Below, one piece after another: positions 3,826 to 63,273 of a stretch of DNA of 64,000 nt; position 1 is the stretch's first letter; each line of letters starts with the position of its first letter. The notes beneath the pieces were generated by a model, which ran no database searches, was not told where the DNA came from, and was given only the letters and a program-made list of their open reading frames with translations. Made by a program: the position numbers and the translations under genes. Source of the DNA: Mobula hypostoma (Eukaryota); contig NC_086097.1 in the NCBI RefSeq assembly GCF_963921235.1, forward strand, positions 39,806,001-39,870,000, given 5' to 3'.

Positions 3826-4200
3826 TTTCACTTCATCAAAGTGAAGTGAAGGTGCTGTTCCTTCACCAAAGTGTGGCCTTATCATGACAGTAAAGGAGGC
3901 CATGGATGGACATATTGGAATTAGAATGGGAAGTGGAATTAAAATGGGTGGCCACTGGGAGATCCTGCTTCTTCTGATGGATGGAGCAAAGCAGTCTCCC
4001 AATCTACATCAGATCTAACCAATATACAGGAGGGCACACTGGGAGCACTGGACACAGTATATGACCGCAACAGACTCACAGGTAAAGTGTCGCCTCACCT
4101 GGAAGGTGTGTTTGGAATCCTAAATGCTTGTGAAAGGGGAGGTGTAGGGGATGTGTCCCCTCCCACCACCTTTTAAACCTACTCCTCATCTTTTTTTCTC

Positions 4201-4238
4201 CAGCCCTGCTGAAGGATCTCGGCCCGAAATGTCAACTG
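4201..4238 (+). ncRNA. Degenerate minimal hammerhead ribozyme motif (PLE pLTR)
   Basis: CAGCC-CTGCTGA-AGGATCTCGGCCC-GAAA-TGTC-AACTG; A6>C in core. Confidence 0.55.
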
Positions 4239-4659
4239 TACTCTTTTCCATAGATGCTGCCTGCTGAGTTCCTCCAGCATTTTGTGTGTGTTGCTAGGAT
4301 TTCCAGCATCTGCAAATTTTCTCTTGTTTGTGATGAGGTGTAGCTGGTTCAAATGGCAGAAAGCAGGTGCTAGAATGGTCTTTTGGTTTTTATTTTCCAC
4401 TCTGTTTTCACTGCAGAAATTGTATTTAAGAGCCTGGAATATAATTCAAAACTATATCTTTGTTACATTAGAACTTGTATCAAAATGCTGACATGGATAG
4501 CAGACAAGAAAGAAAAAGAGAGATGATGTGTTGTTTGCTTATGCAAGGAGCAGAGTGAGAGTTTGAATTCATGCCTCATCCAAGGGAGAGCTGCAGTTTC
4601 TATTATTTGTGGTAATGAAATATTTTCTTAAAAGTAGAACCATCAAGACAAGGTTACTA

Positions 4660-14480: not shown

Positions 14481-15780
14481 TCTTGAATGTTTGATGGATC
14501 CATTGAGAATTCAGAATCAAGGCAACCTTGCCCCAATTGTAAAAAGCATTGTGTGGGTTCAATGAACAACATGAGTACCTTTAACCCTGGTGTGGATATC
14601 AGGATAAGATTGCACTCGGTACAATGTTCAGCCCAAATCATGCATCACAGCTTCTCTGAGGGAGTCAGTGGGATTACATTTTAGAGTCAGTTGGACTTGA
14701 TCTGAAATTTACATAGTGTGATTGATGCATGTAGTCAAAGAGAGTGGAATAAACAAGATAACACATCTTTCAACAGCTTTTCACTCTTGGTGATTTGTTA
14801 CATGTTTTTCACTTCAAATTAAAAGAGTTTTGGTGAGATTACCTCTAGTGTACTCTGTATAGTTTTGCTCTTCTTACTAAAGAAAAGATTTGCTTGTTGT
14901 AGGGTTACGGCAAGAGAATTTCGCCAAGTTGAATGAATCCTGGGATGATGAATATGTGGAGGAAAAATTCGATTGTTTAGGTCTGTATTTACTATTTTTT
15001 TTTAGGGTAAGAGGTGATCTTTTTGAAACGTACAAAATAAAAGAAAGGCTTGATAAGCTGGATGCAAGGAGGATGTTGCCCTGGCTGTGTGGACCGGAAG
15101 CAGAGGTCAGAGTCTCAGGATACTGGGTAAGAGATTTAAAACAGAGAAAAAGAGACATTTCTTTGGGCAGAGTGGAATTTTCTACCACAGTGGGTTGTAG
15201 ATGTCAATTCACAAAATCTAGATGCAGGAGCTTGAGAGCATGGTTTTCACACTGAGAATATTCTGAGTGAGGTTCAGATTACAGCAATGGCAATAGCTAA
15301 GATAAAAATATATATATCATACTCAAGAAGATATATTTAAAAAAATCTTGAAACGACTAACAGGATAAGGCAAATGTCCAGATGAAAAAATGTGTCTGCA
15401 CTATACTCAAAATTCTACATCGTTAACAGGACTAGGTTATAGTAAGTGGAAACACAGATGTCACACGGAATGTGTGGAGAAGACAGAGTCAGAAAGACTT
15501 AAAACAAAATTCTCTAGTATCATAAACATGAAGACAACTTTGAGAAATTTTGCTTATTGATCGTGAGGAGCTAACAGACAGATACGCTATCTAATAGCAT
15601 TGTCGATCCTAATCAGCATAGACACTTTTACAGAGTTGGATCATCTTTCCCAAATAGTACACGTTGTTTATTTTAAGATCAAAACAGAACTAACTTTTAG
15701 TCACTTGGAATGCATGAAAATGAAACACGTTCGATCCACTTCTGCAACAGGACAGTGAAGAACTGAGATCCATTTTCTCA

Positions 15781-15973
15781 CACAGAACACAAAATACTGA
15801 AGGAATACTAAAGAAACAGCATTAGTAGAGGGAAATGGACGGTCGACGTTTCAGGTCGAGACTCTTCATCAGTACTGTCCATTTTCCTTTAGAGATGCCA
15901 CCTGACCCACTGAGTTCCTCCACTATTTTGTGTGCTGCTCCAGATTTCAAGCATTTGCAGCCTCTCTTGTGTC
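15781..15973. mobile_element. 193-bp fold-back PLE-derived mini-element containing a hammerhead core
   Basis: Flanked by direct repeat TCCATTTTCTCA (15769-15780, 15974-15985); arms 15787-15844 and 15873-15933 are imperfect inverted repeats of pLTR sequence. Confidence 0.85.
15837..15880 (-). ncRNA. Minimal type-I hammerhead ribozyme, intact catalytic core
   Basis: Minus strand GGACAGTA-CTGATGA-AGAGTCTCGACCT-GAAA-CGTC-GACCGTCC; predicted cleavage between 15845 and 15844. Confidence 0.75.
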
Positions 15974-17948
15974 TCCATTTTCTCATGTCAAGGCTTACCA
16001 GAAGAATCATTCATGGGTAATAGTTCACAACTACATTAATTTCTACCAGAGCATCTAGGTAATGTGGTAGTAATGATATGTCAATTTTATCATATTATCC
16101 AGTATGAAAAGGTCTTGCAGAGTGATCAGTGAGCATTGTTGAAGAAGCATGAAGGAGCATAATGCGGGTCATCGTGGAAGAATGGTCAGCAAAAGCATTA
16201 ATGAAGTAAGTAGCAAACTTGCATTTTTCTATTTGAGCTTTGTAACCTAATAAACTTTTGTAACCCAATGTCCTAAGCTTAGACTTATTGCAGAGAGCCT
16301 TTCATAATCAGGATACAGCACTGATTGCAGAAAAGAGCAACATACATTCATAGGACATTGTTACTGTCTGTTTTATGATTAAAAATACATTGTGCTACGG
16401 ATGTTCCTATTTACTTCTGGTTATGTATATCTTCATGTGTAACAGAATAGCTTGCATGCCAGTAATCAGGCATATTTGCCTGTTTAGCAGTATAAATACA
16501 TGTTGAAATCGGTCTCCAACCTAGAGCTTTTCATGTTTCTGGCTGCAAGCTATCCATGATATCCTGGTGAATAAAGGTATTGCCACTTGAAGTCTTGTCT
16601 CTAAAGTTATTTTTCTTCCACAGTCATATAATAAGACATTGATTAAACACAAAAACATCAGCTGTTTATTTCCCTCCAAAAATGCTGAGGTTCTGCTTCA
16701 TTTTGTGTTTGTTGCTCAAGACATTGATCAGCTAGCTTTTTTGATAAGCAATAAACAACACCAAATTCCACAACAGCTTATGGCTTTGCTAAGATACTGA
16801 AGTGTGGAATATTCAAAATTCATTTGCTATTAGTTTGGTCAAATCTTGCGGGGTGAGCAGAAGATAAGAGACAGAAACAAAATTATGATATGCCAATAAG
16901 AGAAACAGTTCAAACAACGCAAAGAGTTGTGTATTACCTCAGCTTAGTAAATTTAACACTAGGAAATGGAATCTTAGAATGATAGCTGAATAATGTGATA
17001 GATAGAGCTTATGAAAATATCTGATTGAATTAAAATTACATAGCTTAGCTCCTGCACAAAGTATACAGTGGAATAGCAAAGAATCTTGTGATTTTGCTTG
17101 CATTTCTGAAAGTAATTCAGTGGAAGAATCAATGCAAGATTTTGCTGAAATTGAATCAAGACACATAACTCAAATCAAAAAATGAGCATACAGGCATATC
17201 ACCAGAGACTCACACACCTGCAGAAAGATATCATTGGCAATTAATGTTAATGTATAAATCCTTCTTTCATTTTAAAATTGGTAAAACAGCGCAGTGTGTA
17301 GAAGCATACAACAGTCATTTAAGACATAAGCACATATGCACAATGTATCTGGAAAACTTTGAATAAACCAGATGCAGGTGCTTTAACAATCCTTTATGCA
17401 TCTTAGTGAGTCTTTACATTCTTGGCATTACAGCCAGTTAGAACAACAGTCTCAGACAGTGTATAGAGAATTTACGGTGAAACAAGGACAAATGCTGAAT
17501 ATACCTTTGCGGAATAAGTGCAAGTTACCTGTTGTTAACTGAAATATACAATGAAAAGATTATATTGAGACTGCTCCCGCATATTAAAAGAGTGACTTCT
17601 GGGTTACTATTTTAATACACAAACAGTTATTTTTAATGTTGAATGTCATCAAGTTTCTGTAGATCTATTCTGTTCCTCTTTCCATTACCAACTTCGCAAT
17701 CAAAAACTCTTTCCTTCATTTAGAAAAGGCAACAGTTTTTTTAAAGTTTGCATATTTAAATCGATTATGCCAGGCCCTTTTCCATATTTCATGCTTTTCC
17801 AGTCCTAATCCAGAAAAGGACTAGTTTACAGTGGTAAATCAGTAAAGGAGTATTGGTATTGATACAGGTTTATTATGGTCATATATACTGTGAAAACTTG
17901 TCTTGCTTACTGTTCATACAGATCAAATCATTATACAGTGCATTGAGC

Positions 17949-22209: not shown

Positions 22210-22385
22210 AAGTATATTTAAGGCAGAGGTTGATAGATTCTTGATTGGTCAGGGCATGAAGGGATATGAGGGGGAAGGCATGAGATTGGGGCTGAGGGGA
22301 AAAATAGATGAGTCATGATGAAATGGCCGAGCAGACTGGGTGGGCCAAATGGCTTAATGCTGCTCCTATGTTTTAATGGTTTTAG
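22210..22385 (+). mobile_element. CR1 3' end
   Basis: IFKAEVDRFLI..GYEG segment and CR1 3'UTR. Confidence 0.8.
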
Positions 22386-23010
22386 ACCACAAGATCATAG
22401 ATATAGGAGCAGAATTAGGCCATTTGGCCCGTCAGGTCTGCTCCACTGTTTTATCATGACTCATCCATTTTTCCTCTCAGCTTCAGCCTTAAACATACAT
22501 AAAGACTTAGCTTCCACAGCTGCCCATGGCAACAAACTGCACAGATTCACCACTCGCCTTATCCCTGTCCTAGAAGGACGCCCCTCTATTCTGAGTCTGT
22601 GTCCACTGGTCTTAGACTCTCCCACCATAGGAAACATCCTCTCCACATCCACTCTATCAAGGCCTTTCAACATTCGATAGGTTTCAATGAGGTCACCGCT
22701 CATTCTTCTGAACTCCAGTGAATACAGGTCCAGAGCCATCAAATGTTCTTCATATGACAAGCTGTTCAATCCTGGAATCATTTTCCTGAACCTCATTTGA
22801 ACCCTCTCCATTTTCAGCACATCCTCTCTAAGATAAGGGGCCCAAACCGGCTCACAATACTCCAAGTACCACCAGCGCTTTATAAAATCTTGACATTACA
22901 TCCTTACTTTTATATTCTAGTCCTCTTGAAGTGAATGCTAACATCACATTTACCTTTCTCACCACAGACTCAACCTACAAATTAACCTTCTGGGAATCCT
23001 GCACAAGGAT
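22386..23010 (-). mobile_element. CR1 3' fragment, tail-to-tail with the previous copy
   Basis: ORF 22461..22865 (EYCEPVWAPYLRED..LEFRRMSGDLIETY). Confidence 0.88.
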
Positions 23011-33335: not shown

Positions 33336-34214
33336 GGTGATAGAACTCAAGGCCTGCCACAGATGTCGAGCATCTTTCAGTGATTCAGGTTTGGTCTGGA
33401 AAAGCCACTTTGCATGTGCGATGCCTCTGCCAGAACCCTTACAATTTCTGCATTAGCCTCCCACAAGGTATGGGGTTCAGGCCCTGTGGATTTATCCACC
33501 TAATTTGCCTTAATACAGCAAGTATTTTCTCTTCCGTAATCCATATATGGTCCATGACCCCACTATTATTTTGCCTCAGTTCTATAGACTCTGAGTCCAT
33601 CTCCTGAGAAAATACAAATGGAAACTGTCCATTTAAGATGTTCCCATTCTGTTTTGGAATGCCTTATATTTTCCAAGCTTTTTATTTATTCTTGCTGCTT
33701 ATTCTTACTGTACACCTCCACCTTCTTCTTAACTAGGGCCTTGTCTTAATACCCCTCAAAAACCAAGGTGCCCTAAACCTGTTAGCCTCCCCTTTTACTC
33801 TAACAGGAGCATACAAACTCTGTGCTCTCAGTATTTCTCTCTTGAAGGCCTGTCACTAACCAAGCATCGCTTTGCCAGAAAACAACCCACCCCAATCCAT
33901 ATTTGCCAGATTCTTTCTGATGTCATCATGTTTGCTATCTCTCCACAAGCTTGCTCCTCTGGATCCCATTGACTTTTGGGTGCTAATCCCATTAGCATGT
34001 TCATCTCTTTCTTAATCCTTTGTTCCACCCATACAGCCCTCTAATCTGTCCTGTCTGAGCACTGCCATGACAATTTCCTTCACTGGTAATGCCACCTTTC
34101 CCTATTCATACCTCCCTCTCTATCACGTCGAAGCAACAAAACCCTAGAATACTGAGCTGCCAGTCCTGCCCTTCCTGCAACCAATTCTCATTAATGCCTA
34201 CAATATCATAATTC

Positions 34215-34864
34215 AAAAACATGAGAAAATTTGCAGTTGCTGGAAATCCAGAGCAACACACACAAAGTGCTGGAGTTCAGCAGGTCAGGCAACATATATG
34301 GAAATGAATAATCAATTGACGTTTCGGGCCAAGACCTTTCTTCAGGACTAGATAGGAAGGGAGAAGATACCAGAATAAAAAGGTGGGCTGGCAGGGAAGG
34401 TGGATAGATAGAAGATGATAGGTAAAGCCAGATGAGTATGAAAGGTAAAGGGTTGGAGGCGAAGGAATCTAATAGGAGAGGACCATAGGAGAAAGGGAAG
34501 GAGGAGGAAGAGACCCAGGAGGAGGTAATAGACAGGTGAGAAGAGGTAGGAGGCCAGAGAGGGGAATAAAAGAAGAGGGGAGGGGAAGGGACATTTTTTT
34601 AACCAGAAGAAATCAATATTCATGACGTTAGGTTGGAGGCTAACCAAATGGAATATAAGGTGTTGCTCCTCCACCCTGAGAGTGGCCTCATTGTGGCACA
34701 AGAGGACTGACATGTCGGAATGAGTATGGGAATCAGAATTAAAATGTTTGCCCTCCGGGAAGTTTTGCTTTTGGTGGATGGAATGGAGGTGCTCACCGAA
34801 GCAGTCCCCCAGTTTACAATGGGACTCACCATTGTAAACGAGGCTGTATTGGGAGCACTGGACC
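34215..34864 (-). mobile_element. 5'-truncated Penelope-like element (GIY-YIG + pLTR)
   Basis: 14-bp TSD CAATATCATAATTC (34201-34214, 34865-34878); ORF 34348..34713 EEQHLIFHLVSLQPNVMNIDF. Confidence 0.88.
34313..34350 (-). ncRNA. Minimal hammerhead ribozyme motif, intact core
   Basis: Minus strand TAGTC-CTGAAGA-AAGGTCTTGGCCC-GAAA-CGTC-AATTG. Confidence 0.65.
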
Positions 34865-58871: not shown

Positions 58872-61036
58872 CTCTAAATCTTTCCTCTACATATATTTGC
58901 CGATATGCCTATTAAACTTTCTAATTATACCCACCTCTAGCACTTCCTCTGGCAGTTTGTTCCATGTACCATTACCCTTTCACCTTAACATCTTCCCCCT
59001 CAATACCTTCTATCTTGAGAAAAAGACTGTGACTATTCCTGTCATCTATGACCCTCATGATATCATAAAACCACTATAAACTCATCCCTTAGCCTCAGCT
59101 CTCCAGGTAAAAAGTCCAGCCTATCCAGTCTTTTCTTGTAACTCAAGCCCTCCAGTCTTGGTAACAGCCTTGTGAATTTTATTTTGCATACTTTCAGTCT
59201 TAAAGACATCCTACCAGCAAACCAGGACACCAAAACTGCCTACAATATGCCAGGTGTGGTCTCACCAACATCTTGTACAACTGTATCGTGACACCCAACT
59301 CCTGTACTCAGTGTCCTGCCAGATGAAGGCAAGTATACCAAAAGCTTTCATCGCCATCCAGATACTAATGGTTCTTGAAAAACTATTAAATACCTCCACA
59401 ATCTCTTCAGCTACCTCCTTCAGAATCCTGGGGTGTTGTCCACCTGGTCGAGGTGACTTATCTACTCTCAGACATTTCAGCTTCCCAAGCAGCTTCTCTG
59501 TAGTAATAGCAATAGCACTCATTTCTAACCCCTGACACTCTCACATTTTTGGCATTGTGCTTGTGTCTTCCATGGTGAATACCGTCATAAAATACTTATG
59601 AAGTTCATCTGCCATTTCCTTGTCTCCCATTACTACCTCTCCAGTGTCATTTTCCAGCAGTCCAATATCTACTCTTGTCTCTGTTTTATCTTTATATATT
59701 TGAAAAAATCTTCTTGTATCATCTTTTATATTATTGGTTAGCTTACCTTTTAGTCTTATTCTTTTCTCTCTTTATGGCTTTTTTAACTGCCTTCAGTTGG
59801 GTTTTGAAAGCTTCCTCGTTCTCTACCTTCCCTCCAATTTTTACTATATTATATGCCTTCTCTTTTGCTTTGTCAGCTACAGTTGCCTTATCCTCACTTT
59901 AGAATGCTTCTTAATCTTTGGGATCTATCTATCTGATAAATCCCAAATTACTTTCCAAATTGCTCCCAGAAACTCCAAGCATTGTTGTGCTACCTTCATC
60001 CCTGAACTCTAATCCTTCTCTATTCACTTTGACTAGCTCTTCTCTCATTCCTCTGTAACTCCACTGTCCTACTGATATCCCGGACTTTATTTTCACCTTC
60101 TCAAATTGCAGGGTGAATTCTATCATATTATGATCACTATCTCCTAAGGGTTCCTTTACCTTAAGCTCCCTAACCAAACCTGGGTCATTACATAACACAC
60201 ATTCCAGAATTTTCCCAGTGGTCTCAACCACAAGCTGCTCTAAAAAGCCATCTTGTAGGCACTCTACAAATTCCCTCTCTTGGGATCCAGCACCAACTTG
60301 ACTTTCCCAATTTACCTGCATGTTGAAATCTGCCATGATTATCATGACATTACCCTTTTTACTTGCCTTTTCTAACTCCCATTTTAACTTTTAGCCCACA
60401 TCCACTGGTCAGAGGCTTGCATATAACTCCCATCAGGGTCTTTTCTCTACCCAGAAGGATTCTATATCTTCCAATCCTTCTTACCTGCAGAGCCACCCAA
60501 CCCCTTCTGCCTACCTGCCTATCTTTTCCTTGGTATAATTGGGTGTGATCTTCTTTCAGTCACAACTCAGTGATGCTCACAATGTCATACTTGCAAACTC
60601 TAACTATGCTACAGGATCGTCCAGCTTATTCCATATACTGTGTGCATTCAAATATAACATCTTCAGTCCTGTATTCATTACCCTTTTCAATTTTGGCCCC
60701 CTGTTGCACTTTGTCTAATCCCAATAACTGCAATTTTGCCTTATCATCTGCCTGTATTTCCTCACTACATGCTGCATCCAGTTGTACACCAACTGTCCCA
60801 TCCTCAGCCCTAGCACTCTGGTTCCCAAACTCCTGCCAAATTAGTTTAAACTCTCCCCAACAACTCTAGCAAACATGCCTGCATCAAAATTTGTCTCCTT
60901 GGGTTCAGGTGTAACCTATCCTTTTTGTACAAGTCATACTTTCCCCAGAAGAGTTCCTAATATTCCAAAAATCTGCAATGGTGTCCCAGCATCAATTCTT
61001 CAGCCTCAAATTTATCTGCCAAATCACCTTATTCTT

Positions 61037-63273
61037 CAACATGAGAAATTCTGCAGATGCCGGAAATCCAAGTAATATGCACAAAATGCTGGAGGAACTC
61101 AACAGGTCAGGCAGCATCCATAGAAATGAACAAACAGTTGACATTTCAGGCGCAAGGCCCTTCTTCAGGACCTGTAATGAAGGGAAAAGATGCCAGAATA
61201 AAAAGTTGCGTGGATGGGAAGGGGGAATAGCTGGAAGGTGATAGTGAAGCCAGGTGGGTAGGAAAGGTAAAGGATTGGAGATGAATGCATTTGATAGGGG
61301 AGGAGAGTGGATCATAGGAGAATGGGATGGAGGAGGGGCACCAGCAGGAGCTGATCCTCAGGTGAGAAGTGTTAAGTTCAAAGTTCAAAATAAACTTATT
61401 ACCAAAGTATTGTACATATATTAATTTTCTAAGAGGCCATAGTGTGGAATAGAAGAAGAGTGGATGTATTTGTTTAGCAGACAGTGAAATTGACATTTAT
61501 GCCATCAAGTTGGAGGCTACCCCAACAGAATATGAGGTGTTGCTCCTCCACCCAGAGGGTTGCCTCATCATGGCACAAGAGGAGGCATGGACTGACATGT
61601 CTGTATGGGAATGGGAATTAGGATTAAAATGTTTGGCCACCGGGAAGTTCCACTTTTGCTGGTTGGTACAAGGGTACTCGATGAAGCTGTCTCACTAATG
61701 TAGAGGAGGCTGCAGCAGAAGCATTGGACATAATAGACAGTGCCAGTAGATTCATAGGAAGGACTGCTTGGGGCCCCGAATGGAGGAGAGGAAGGCAGTG
61801 AATGGTCAGGTTTAGTACTTTGGCCACTTGCTGGGAAGGAGCTTAGTGGGGAGGGGCAAATGGACATGAAATCAAGGAGGGAGCAATTCCAGCAGAAAGC
61901 AGAGAGAGGTGAGGAGGTAAAGAAATGTCTGGTGGTAGGATCCCTTTAGAGATGTCAAAAGATGTGGAGAATGATGTTTTGGATGTGGAAGCCCGTAGAA
62001 TAGCAGGTAAAAACAAGCAAACTCTATCACTGTTAAGGTGGCAGGAAGATGGGGTGCATGTGGATGTCTGGGAAATGGATGAAGAAACTGAGAAAAGGGA
62101 ATAGCATTCTTATAGGAGACAGGGTGGGAAGCGGTATAGTCAAGATAGCCAAGATAGTCAAGAATGAGTAGGTTTATAAGAGTTGTCAGTCAACAGTACC
62201 AACGTAGTTGTCAATATTGTGGAGGATGAATTGGGGAGCATTGCTAGGGAAGGCTTGGAACATGGACTGTTCCATGTAGCCATTGTAAAGGCAGGCAAAT
62301 CTGGGGCCTGTGCGGTTGTCCATAGCTACCTATTGAGTCTGGGAAAAGTGGAAGGAGCCGGAGAAATTATTGAGTGTAAGGACCAGTTCTGCCAGAAGGA
62401 GGAGGGTGGTGGAGGGGAATTGGTTGATTCTTCTATTGAGAAAGAAGCGGAGAGCTTTAAGGCCTTTTTGATGGGGGTATATGGACTGGACATCCAAGGT
62501 GAAAATGAAGTGGTGAGGGCCAGGGAATTGAAAGCTAGAGAGTAGATAGAGAGCATGAGAAATATTGCAGATGTAGGTGGGATGGGACTGAACCAAAGGG
62601 GATAGAATGGAATGAGCCAACAGAAACAGAACGAGCCAAGTTCAGTTTTGCAGGAGCAAGCAGTGACAATGGCCCTACCTGTACAGTCAGGTTTGTGAAT
62701 CTTTGGTAGGAGGTAGAAGTGAGCAATGTTGGGTGAGGGACCTATGAGTTTGGGGGCTGTGGATGGGAGTTCTCCGGAGCTGATGAGGTCAGTGATGGTG
62801 CTGGAGGCAGTTTTCTGATGGACCAGAATGGGATCTTCTTCGAGAAGTTGCCGCCTGGCCTTAGCAAGGTAGAGATCAGCCCACCACACTGCAACAGCTC
62901 CCCCCTTTGCCTGCAGGTTTGATGGCAAGATTGGGATTGGTGTGGAGAGAGTGGAGGGGTGGGTGTTCAGATGGGGTAGGATTTGAGGAGGAATGAGGAA
63001 TGCTGAAATTGAGCTAGTTGATGTCTCGTCACCATTAGAGATGAACATATCCAGGGCAGGCAGAGAACTAGATTAGGGTGTCCAAGAAGATGAGGGAGGT
63101 TGGATATAGGACAAAGGATCATTGGTGCGGGGTGGGGAATTCTTGCTGAAAGTGGGCTCAGGGACAGAAGTGGCAGAAGAATAGCTCGGCGGGTTGGGAT
63201 GGGTGGGGAGCCCATTGAGGTGTGGGTGAAGGAGACAAAGGCACCAAGGTGCAGGCAAAAGAAGTCAAAGGCA
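61037..63273 (-). mobile_element. Penelope-like element: RT + GIY-YIG endonuclease + pLTR (decayed)
   Basis: KGGAVAVW, FYLLPKIHKP..GRAIV, FTLDVQSIY, ELVLTLNNF (PLE RT); VYYVQC..LLYISET (GIY-YIG); flanked by TTATTCTT (61029-61036, 63274-63281). Confidence 0.9.
61135..61173 (-). ncRNA. Minimal hammerhead ribozyme motif in pLTR
   Basis: Minus strand AGGTC-CTGAAGA-AGGGCCTTGCGCCT-GAAA-TGTC-AACTG. Confidence 0.6.

Follow-up and report, generated by a model that had tools for sequence, protein, structure and literature searches.

A two-armed Penelope-like insertion probably joined through a five-nucleotide match at its hammerhead stem I, with the ribozyme uncut

Insertions of Penelope-like elements (PLEs) have been described as an inverted, 5'-truncated copy of the element with a 30-40-nt tail at one end and a TSD (PMC8557442, PMC3846280), and further accounts cover the tail on Penelope copies (PMC8557442, PMC11167929) and the head-to-head architecture (PMC8969392). 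In the anole PLE PAc, the element's protein, a predicted dimer, nicks and extends both strands; RT begins at two internal sites bounding the tail, and elements with a dead ribozyme insert equally (PMC11167929). The family analyzed below bears, through its copy ends, on the role of the hammerhead in PLEs, which this literature treats as an open question (PMC8557442, PMC11167929).

We analyzed a short insert in the window, a 64,000-nt stretch of Mobula hypostoma DNA. A sequence-only reading had described a TSD-flanked, non-coding insert of Penelope-like pLTR sequence, inverted in arrangement and bearing a minimal minus-strand hammerhead, and this outline held. The two copies of TCCATTTTCTCA are 100% identical, with a chance probability of about 5e-5 even with 20x20 placements, and between them lie 193 bp (15781-15973) comprising two arms arranged head-to-head (Table 1). 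We number element positions relative to the site where the hammerhead is predicted to cut, so that the base directly 3' of GUC is +1; in diverged copies, end positions are uncertain by a few bases.

Table 1. Features of the insert and its hammerhead motif (positions in the window; element positions relative to the predicted cut).
Feature	Position	Strand	Remarks
Left TSD copy, 12 nt	15769..15780	.	TCCATTTTCTCA, repeat comparison
Right TSD copy, 12 nt	15974..15985	.	TCCATTTTCTCA
Tail-less pLTR arm, about +68 down to -33	15781..15877	-	terminates at family-wide 5' hot spot
Tailed pLTR arm, from +1 (possibly as late as +6) to about +107	15873..15973	+	without hammerhead core
34-nt Penelope 'tail'	15940..15973	+	this arm only; read from sequence
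5-nt overlap at inversion joint	15873..15877	.	minus-arm stem I 5' strand = plus-arm +1 to +5
Decayed minimal type-I hammerhead	15840..15877	-	motif reading; stem I 3/5 pairs, stem II 4/5
Stem I 5' strand	15877-15873	-	hammerhead part
CUGAUGA box	15872-15866	-	hammerhead part
Unpaired A	15865	-	hammerhead part
Stem II	15864-15853	-	hammerhead part
GAAA-C-GUC	15852-15845	-	hammerhead part
Predicted cut	between 15845 and 15844	-	hammerhead part
Stem I 3' strand	15844-15840	-	hammerhead part

The same five bases form the start of the plus arm and the 5' strand of stem I in the minus arm, and stem I is indeed the microhomology at the joint, as had been proposed. Because of this overlap the plus arm's true start could lie anywhere from +1 to +6; therefore, although its register agrees with +1, this copy alone does not show that it begins precisely at the cleavage site. 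The imperfect inverted arms exist as well, but as segments of 23 nt at 87% and 25 nt at 76% instead of one 60-nt stem, matching in 44/65 aligned columns, and the predicted RNA hairpin was no more stable than shuffles (z -1.19; 17/200 as stable). Lengthening of stem I by the fold-back, which had also been suggested, follows automatically from any in-register joint and leaves the broken closing pair unrepaired. Separately, the first nine bases of the TSD (15769-15777) equal plus-arm +6 to +14 (15878-15886), an identity that is likely due to chance because other copies carry the same variant.

From 15872 to 15845 the minus strand reads CUGAUGA-A-GAGUC-UC-GACCU-GAAA-C-GUC, which holds the elements of a minimal PLE hammerhead: CUGANGA and GAAA boxes, an NUH site, an unpaired base after A9 and, in the ACGU of the minus arm, the palindromic remnant of helix III. 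The stems are not intact. Only three of the five stem I pairs are left, the closing pair at the cleavage site being an A-G mismatch, stem II contains one A-C mismatch, and in organisms B and D an extra change at 15840 disrupts another stem I pair. An Rfam scan left the motif undetected at this locus (0/5 matches at E up to 1 fall there), and we saw no sign of the ribozyme being maintained here.

The insert is a known insertion type, the inverted-pLTR form, of a very abundant Penelope-like family. A family 30-mer has 8368 exact matches in the genome, and 1.0 Mb of evenly spaced sequence contained 203 pLTR arms and 44 head-to-head copies, crudely ~150,000 of the latter per genome. Longer copies continue upstream into an ORF with RT-type motifs, read by eye, and a GIY-YIG-type match; in Pfam, the ORFs of two loci (L216 and L193) matched GIY-YIG with E values of 3e-4 and 4e-4, just under the curated cut-off (21.4 bits against 22.6), and the RT domain was not found in these partial ORFs. 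At one of the two, L216, the same end sequence belongs to a long head-to-head copy flanked by a 14-nt TSD. This copy (L216:5394-8322) looks young, has arms of about 1.2 and 1.7 kb and an ORF portion that is open through to the stop codon, and sits inside another mobile element.

In inverted pairs, the 3' end of one arm mostly lies near +100-110 and that of the other near +50-79. Direct repeats of 10-15 nt flank 31/84 inverted copies, this locus included, versus 0/84 controls, and unpaired copies at the 5' hot spot rarely have a TSD (5/80); that TSDs are common on two-armed and rare on unpaired copies is as two-nick priming predicts. The features of an EN+ PLE insertion are all present, namely an RT and GIY-YIG ORF upstream in longer copies, an inverted 5'-truncated copy, a tail on one arm and a TSD.

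More decayed copies of the same PLE end occur elsewhere in the window, at 972-1433, 4156-4337, 16652-16721, 34210-34706 and 61031-61583. Beside the right flank of the insert, 16180-16500 is a second, unrelated dispersed repeat with many paralogous contigs. A long hairpin at 22334-22438, with weak matches to miRNA models far under their gathering scores, is probably another inverted repeat.

We surveyed copy ends in a sample that combined 90 loci anchored by a motif downstream of the cut with 100 evenly spaced 10-kb stretches (1.0 Mb); loci picked via junction or hammerhead patterns were excluded from the sample counts. After edge copies and scores <25 bits were dropped, the 5' ends of 58 of the 337 unpaired copies fell at -33..-30 and those of 91/337 within -40..-26, and only 6/337 fell at +1..+6; about 10 of 80 hot-spot "unpaired" copies turned out to have a short inverted arm. 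Among 118 inverted copies, 74 had one arm ending at -38..-27, and the ends of the partner arms were scattered from about -50 to +55. The pile-up at -33 to -30, which appears in both old and young subfamilies, coincides with the outer edge or first bases of hammerhead stem I.

Genome-wide edge patterns agreed with the sample. Each pattern consisted of three non-template bases followed by an 18-nt body, and the bodies for -32, +1 and +4 have near-equal frequencies in the sample (27, 21 and 19); they yielded 741 matches at -32, 45 at +1 and 59 at +4. Inspection by eye reduced the 45 matches at +1 to at most 9 real starts (3 inverted copies joined at stem I, 2 with a different inverted joint and 4 that may be unpaired starts), the remainder being 22 internal deletions of six or seven bases, 3 other internal deletions and 11 mutated full copies; the first letter of this pattern shuts out many stem I joints, for example 3/17 from the exact 21-mer set described below. 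The 59 matches at +4 included 15 genomic starts, 5 inverted rows representing 3 events and 21 tandem joints, giving about 18 independent non-tandem starts by eye. Ends at +1..+8 were not enriched relative to their neighbourhood for either unpaired copies (7/31, p 0.69) or inverted arms (12/47, p 0.52). The proposal that self-cleavage set the template end is unsupported, there being no excess of 5' ends at +1, and the end that is fixed across the family is that of the other arm, at -33 to -30. The copied templates were mostly uncut and ended at the 5' edge of the ribozyme; this speaks against template ends being set by cleavage and suggests that the RNA starts at about -32.

Two further arrangements were noticed. 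In 22/45 of the +1-pattern matches, the recurrent 6-7-nt deletion lies between two AC repeats and takes out the GTCGAC palindrome that has the cut site at its centre. Three loci (L271:432-556, L272:439-506 and L273:286-562) contain head-to-tail units of ~100 nt without the hammerhead core, in which a TGTTT overlap links the tail end to about +4 to +8, and 16 of the +4-pattern matches, on G000:C18:185-192 Mb, belong to the same unit type. These units are possibly insertions into the element's own ATT site, as in PAc, or tandems of the cut product.

The -32 pile-up most likely marks the 5' end of the RNA. The initiator consensus is YYANWYY, and the sequence around -32 fits it in an old and a young subfamily; it also resembles a 3' splice site. 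Penelope is described as having an internal promoter (PMC2377424). A block to RT at -32 may alternatively cause the pile-up. We rejected stalling of RT at the hairpin by reasoning, since it would stop synthesis near +5, not -32. We also considered splicing onto an element-derived first exon, given the pyrimidine tract and AG at this position; in D. virilis, an intron is reported to end at helix I (PMC4209133). Splicing was unsupported: in the 70-nt stretches preceding 80 hot-spot copies there was no sense match to a 520-position end model, the one pair shared among these 80 stretches is an unrelated repeat, and copies keep the family's A and G at -32/-31. We could not detect an extra G of the kind a cap would leave at copy 5' ends. 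In a literature search with partial coverage of the core papers, we found neither the -32 pile-up nor joint positions relative to the hammerhead reported.

We then asked how often inverted copies are joined as this one is. That inversion breakpoints cluster at stem I had been set as a test in advance, and the breakpoints proved largely scattered, against an end set by cleavage: in-register stem I joints made up 3/118 unselected inverted copies (L089, L143 and L202, with L108 as a near case), a recurring minor class of about 2.5%, although the numbers are small. In-register joints at stem II were about as frequent (about 3/118). The commonest joint diagonal is end-to-end with both hammerheads kept (6/118 vs 3/118 for stem I). 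Genome-wide, exact 21-mers found 79 end-to-end joints vs 17 stem I joints, a 2-3-fold gap after normalising; a looser end-to-end pattern gave 161 matches, which may include native sequence. A different view came from 1484 matches in which an antisense arm extends through -33 and the next base is a pyrimidine, a filter that removes most end-to-end joints: in the first 100, stem I was the commonest single partner by eye, with 7 of ~33 recognisable inverted joints, and the next partner, which has a 3-nt match, accounted for 3.

A preference for overlap is visible in the family and would explain the stem I joint without cleavage. For a cDNA ending at -33, +1 to +5 is the only 5-nt match in the element, with 3-nt matches at seven other places, and flush joints favour overlap, 31% of 64 having >=2 nt vs 16% in shifted controls. 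A modest stem I excess is therefore expected without cleavage, because stem I is the only 5-nt partner and overlaps are favoured. Counted against the overlap model, stem I joints are modestly favoured as a single joint in the filtered first 100 of 1484 matches; the element holds no second 5-nt match and hence no equal-overlap control site by which overlap and cleavage could be told apart.

Together, these observations make it probable that the insert is a two-armed PLE stub joined at the 5-nt stem I match at the usual template end, with the ribozyme uncut. We reconstruct the steps from what the sequences contain: the arms, the tail on one arm, the TSD, the stem I joint, the -33 to -30 pile-up and the parent ORF. 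The element's protein would nick both strands 12 nt apart, and each nick would prime one cDNA, one from the inner start at ~+68 and the other from the tail start at ~+107, so that both would be made in what was likely a single insertion event and would grow towards each other. The tail-less cDNA would run to the usual template end at ~-32, likely the 5' start of the RNA, and its last letters, the copy of the stem I 5' strand, would anneal to the copy of the stem I 3' strand in the other cDNA. Excess would then be trimmed and gaps filled; the insert has since decayed. Fold-back of a single template was rejected by reasoning, since the plus arm continues for ~34 nt past the point where the minus arm stops. 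The proposed route resembles L1 twin priming, except that here one and the same RNA end would be copied into the two arms.

The joint would also fit exactly if the template of the tailed arm had been an RNA that its own hammerhead had cleaved beforehand, the cDNA running off at +1 and annealing through stem I to the other cDNA. We consider this origin unlikely. Stem I's rank as commonest partner in the filtered set agrees with it, as do the two +1-pattern matches that are inverted joints starting at +1 with a different partner position, and 32/114 sample copies with intact core boxes retain stems I and II and the stem III pair whole; in vitro, moreover, the PAc ribozyme cleaves with protein help (PMC11167929). 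However, overlap by itself predicts the stem I joint, and the ends give no excess at +1, whether among unpaired copies, in the genome-wide patterns relative to +4, or against the neighbourhood (p 0.5-0.7). In the parts of the published work used here, PAc inserts normally when its ribozyme is mutated, its cut site coincides with the end of no RNA-seq read (PMC11167929), and minimal hammerheads show no cleavage as monomers and low cleavage as dimers (PMC4209133). It is doubtful that a minority of the family's RNA templates is hammerhead-cut in the germ line and that the few per cent of two-armed copies joined at stem I, the present insert among them, record that cut. If true, this would be the first sign of in vivo cleavage by a Penelope hammerhead, the cut minority coming in addition to a prevailing uncut template whose start is the first base pair of the ribozyme.

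The insert might also have arrived as a longer palindrome carrying both hammerheads and later lost its centre by deletion between the direct copies of the stem I pentamer, a history we consider quite improbable. Such palindromes are common (for example L014 and L019; 9/118 inverted copies have both arms at the hot spot) and contain the direct pentamer repeat, and microhomology deletions are known in Penelope copies (PMC3846280). Against this, the same joint is found in organisms B and D, so any deletion predates their split, and stem II joints, which such deletion would also produce, are not commoner. From the sequence itself, annealing at insertion and later deletion of the spacer would look alike.

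The sequence-only reading had favoured a distinct, minimal non-autonomous ribozyme-hairpin element. A self-propagating element of fixed structure would account for the recurrence of the joint (17 and 3 exact matches) and for the many DNA-search matches that span the centre, but those matches differ at their centres, and a near-identical copy was not found among the 40 scored of 330 candidates, the next best matching at 81% over the centre. The 17 other stem I-joint copies had a median pairwise score per base of 0.64 (max 0.82), and they differ in their outer ends and in which arm carries the tail; being so divergent and varied, they most likely arose independently rather than from one propagating element. 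The fixed-structure element is largely refuted, and we regard it as most improbable.

The joint at stem I is present beyond this genome. In organism B, contigs span the flanks on both sides, both arms and the joint; those of organism C contain both flanks and both arms; those of organism D span the joint and cover most of the insert; and those of organism E contain its right side. No joint in them skips the insert, and no empty site was seen in the contigs of these four organisms, which can show presence only. The insert is old, since it is common to these related species, and the locus is an ordinary, dead and decayed PLE stub.

Compared with known systems, the insert most resembles the inverted-pLTR PLE insertions (Arkhipova et al. 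2013, PMC3846280; Craig et al. 2021, PMC8557442), which, as far as these descriptions extend, are likewise head-to-head with a tail on one arm, a TSD of ~10 nt and a short overlap at the joint. It differs from the published examples in its arms of only ~100 nt each, the absence of any remaining ORF and a joint within hammerhead stem I. Its motif shares with published minimal hammerheads the core boxes, the unpaired base after A9, 5-bp stems I and II and the palindromic ACGU in place of helix III, and these hammerheads also occur as opposite-strand pairs 100-700 bp apart; unlike them, the insert has lost the closing pair, another stem I pair and one stem II pair, and retains the core on one arm only. 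Animal non-LTR retrozymes (bioRxiv 10.64898/2026.07.22.740005) are, in the portion of that report used here, also short, non-coding and PLE-derived with a type-I hammerhead, but they are built of tandem units in head-to-tail order, every unit having its own hammerhead, whereas the insert is a single inverted pair with one decayed motif. For PAc, the Poseidon element of Anolis (Frangieh et al. 2024, PMC11167929), the parts of the study used here deal neither with the joint between inverted arms nor with 5' ends located at the hammerhead edge; its two RT start sites match the 3' ends of the insert's two arms, and its nicking and extension of both strands would yield a TSD-flanked, two-armed product like the insert.
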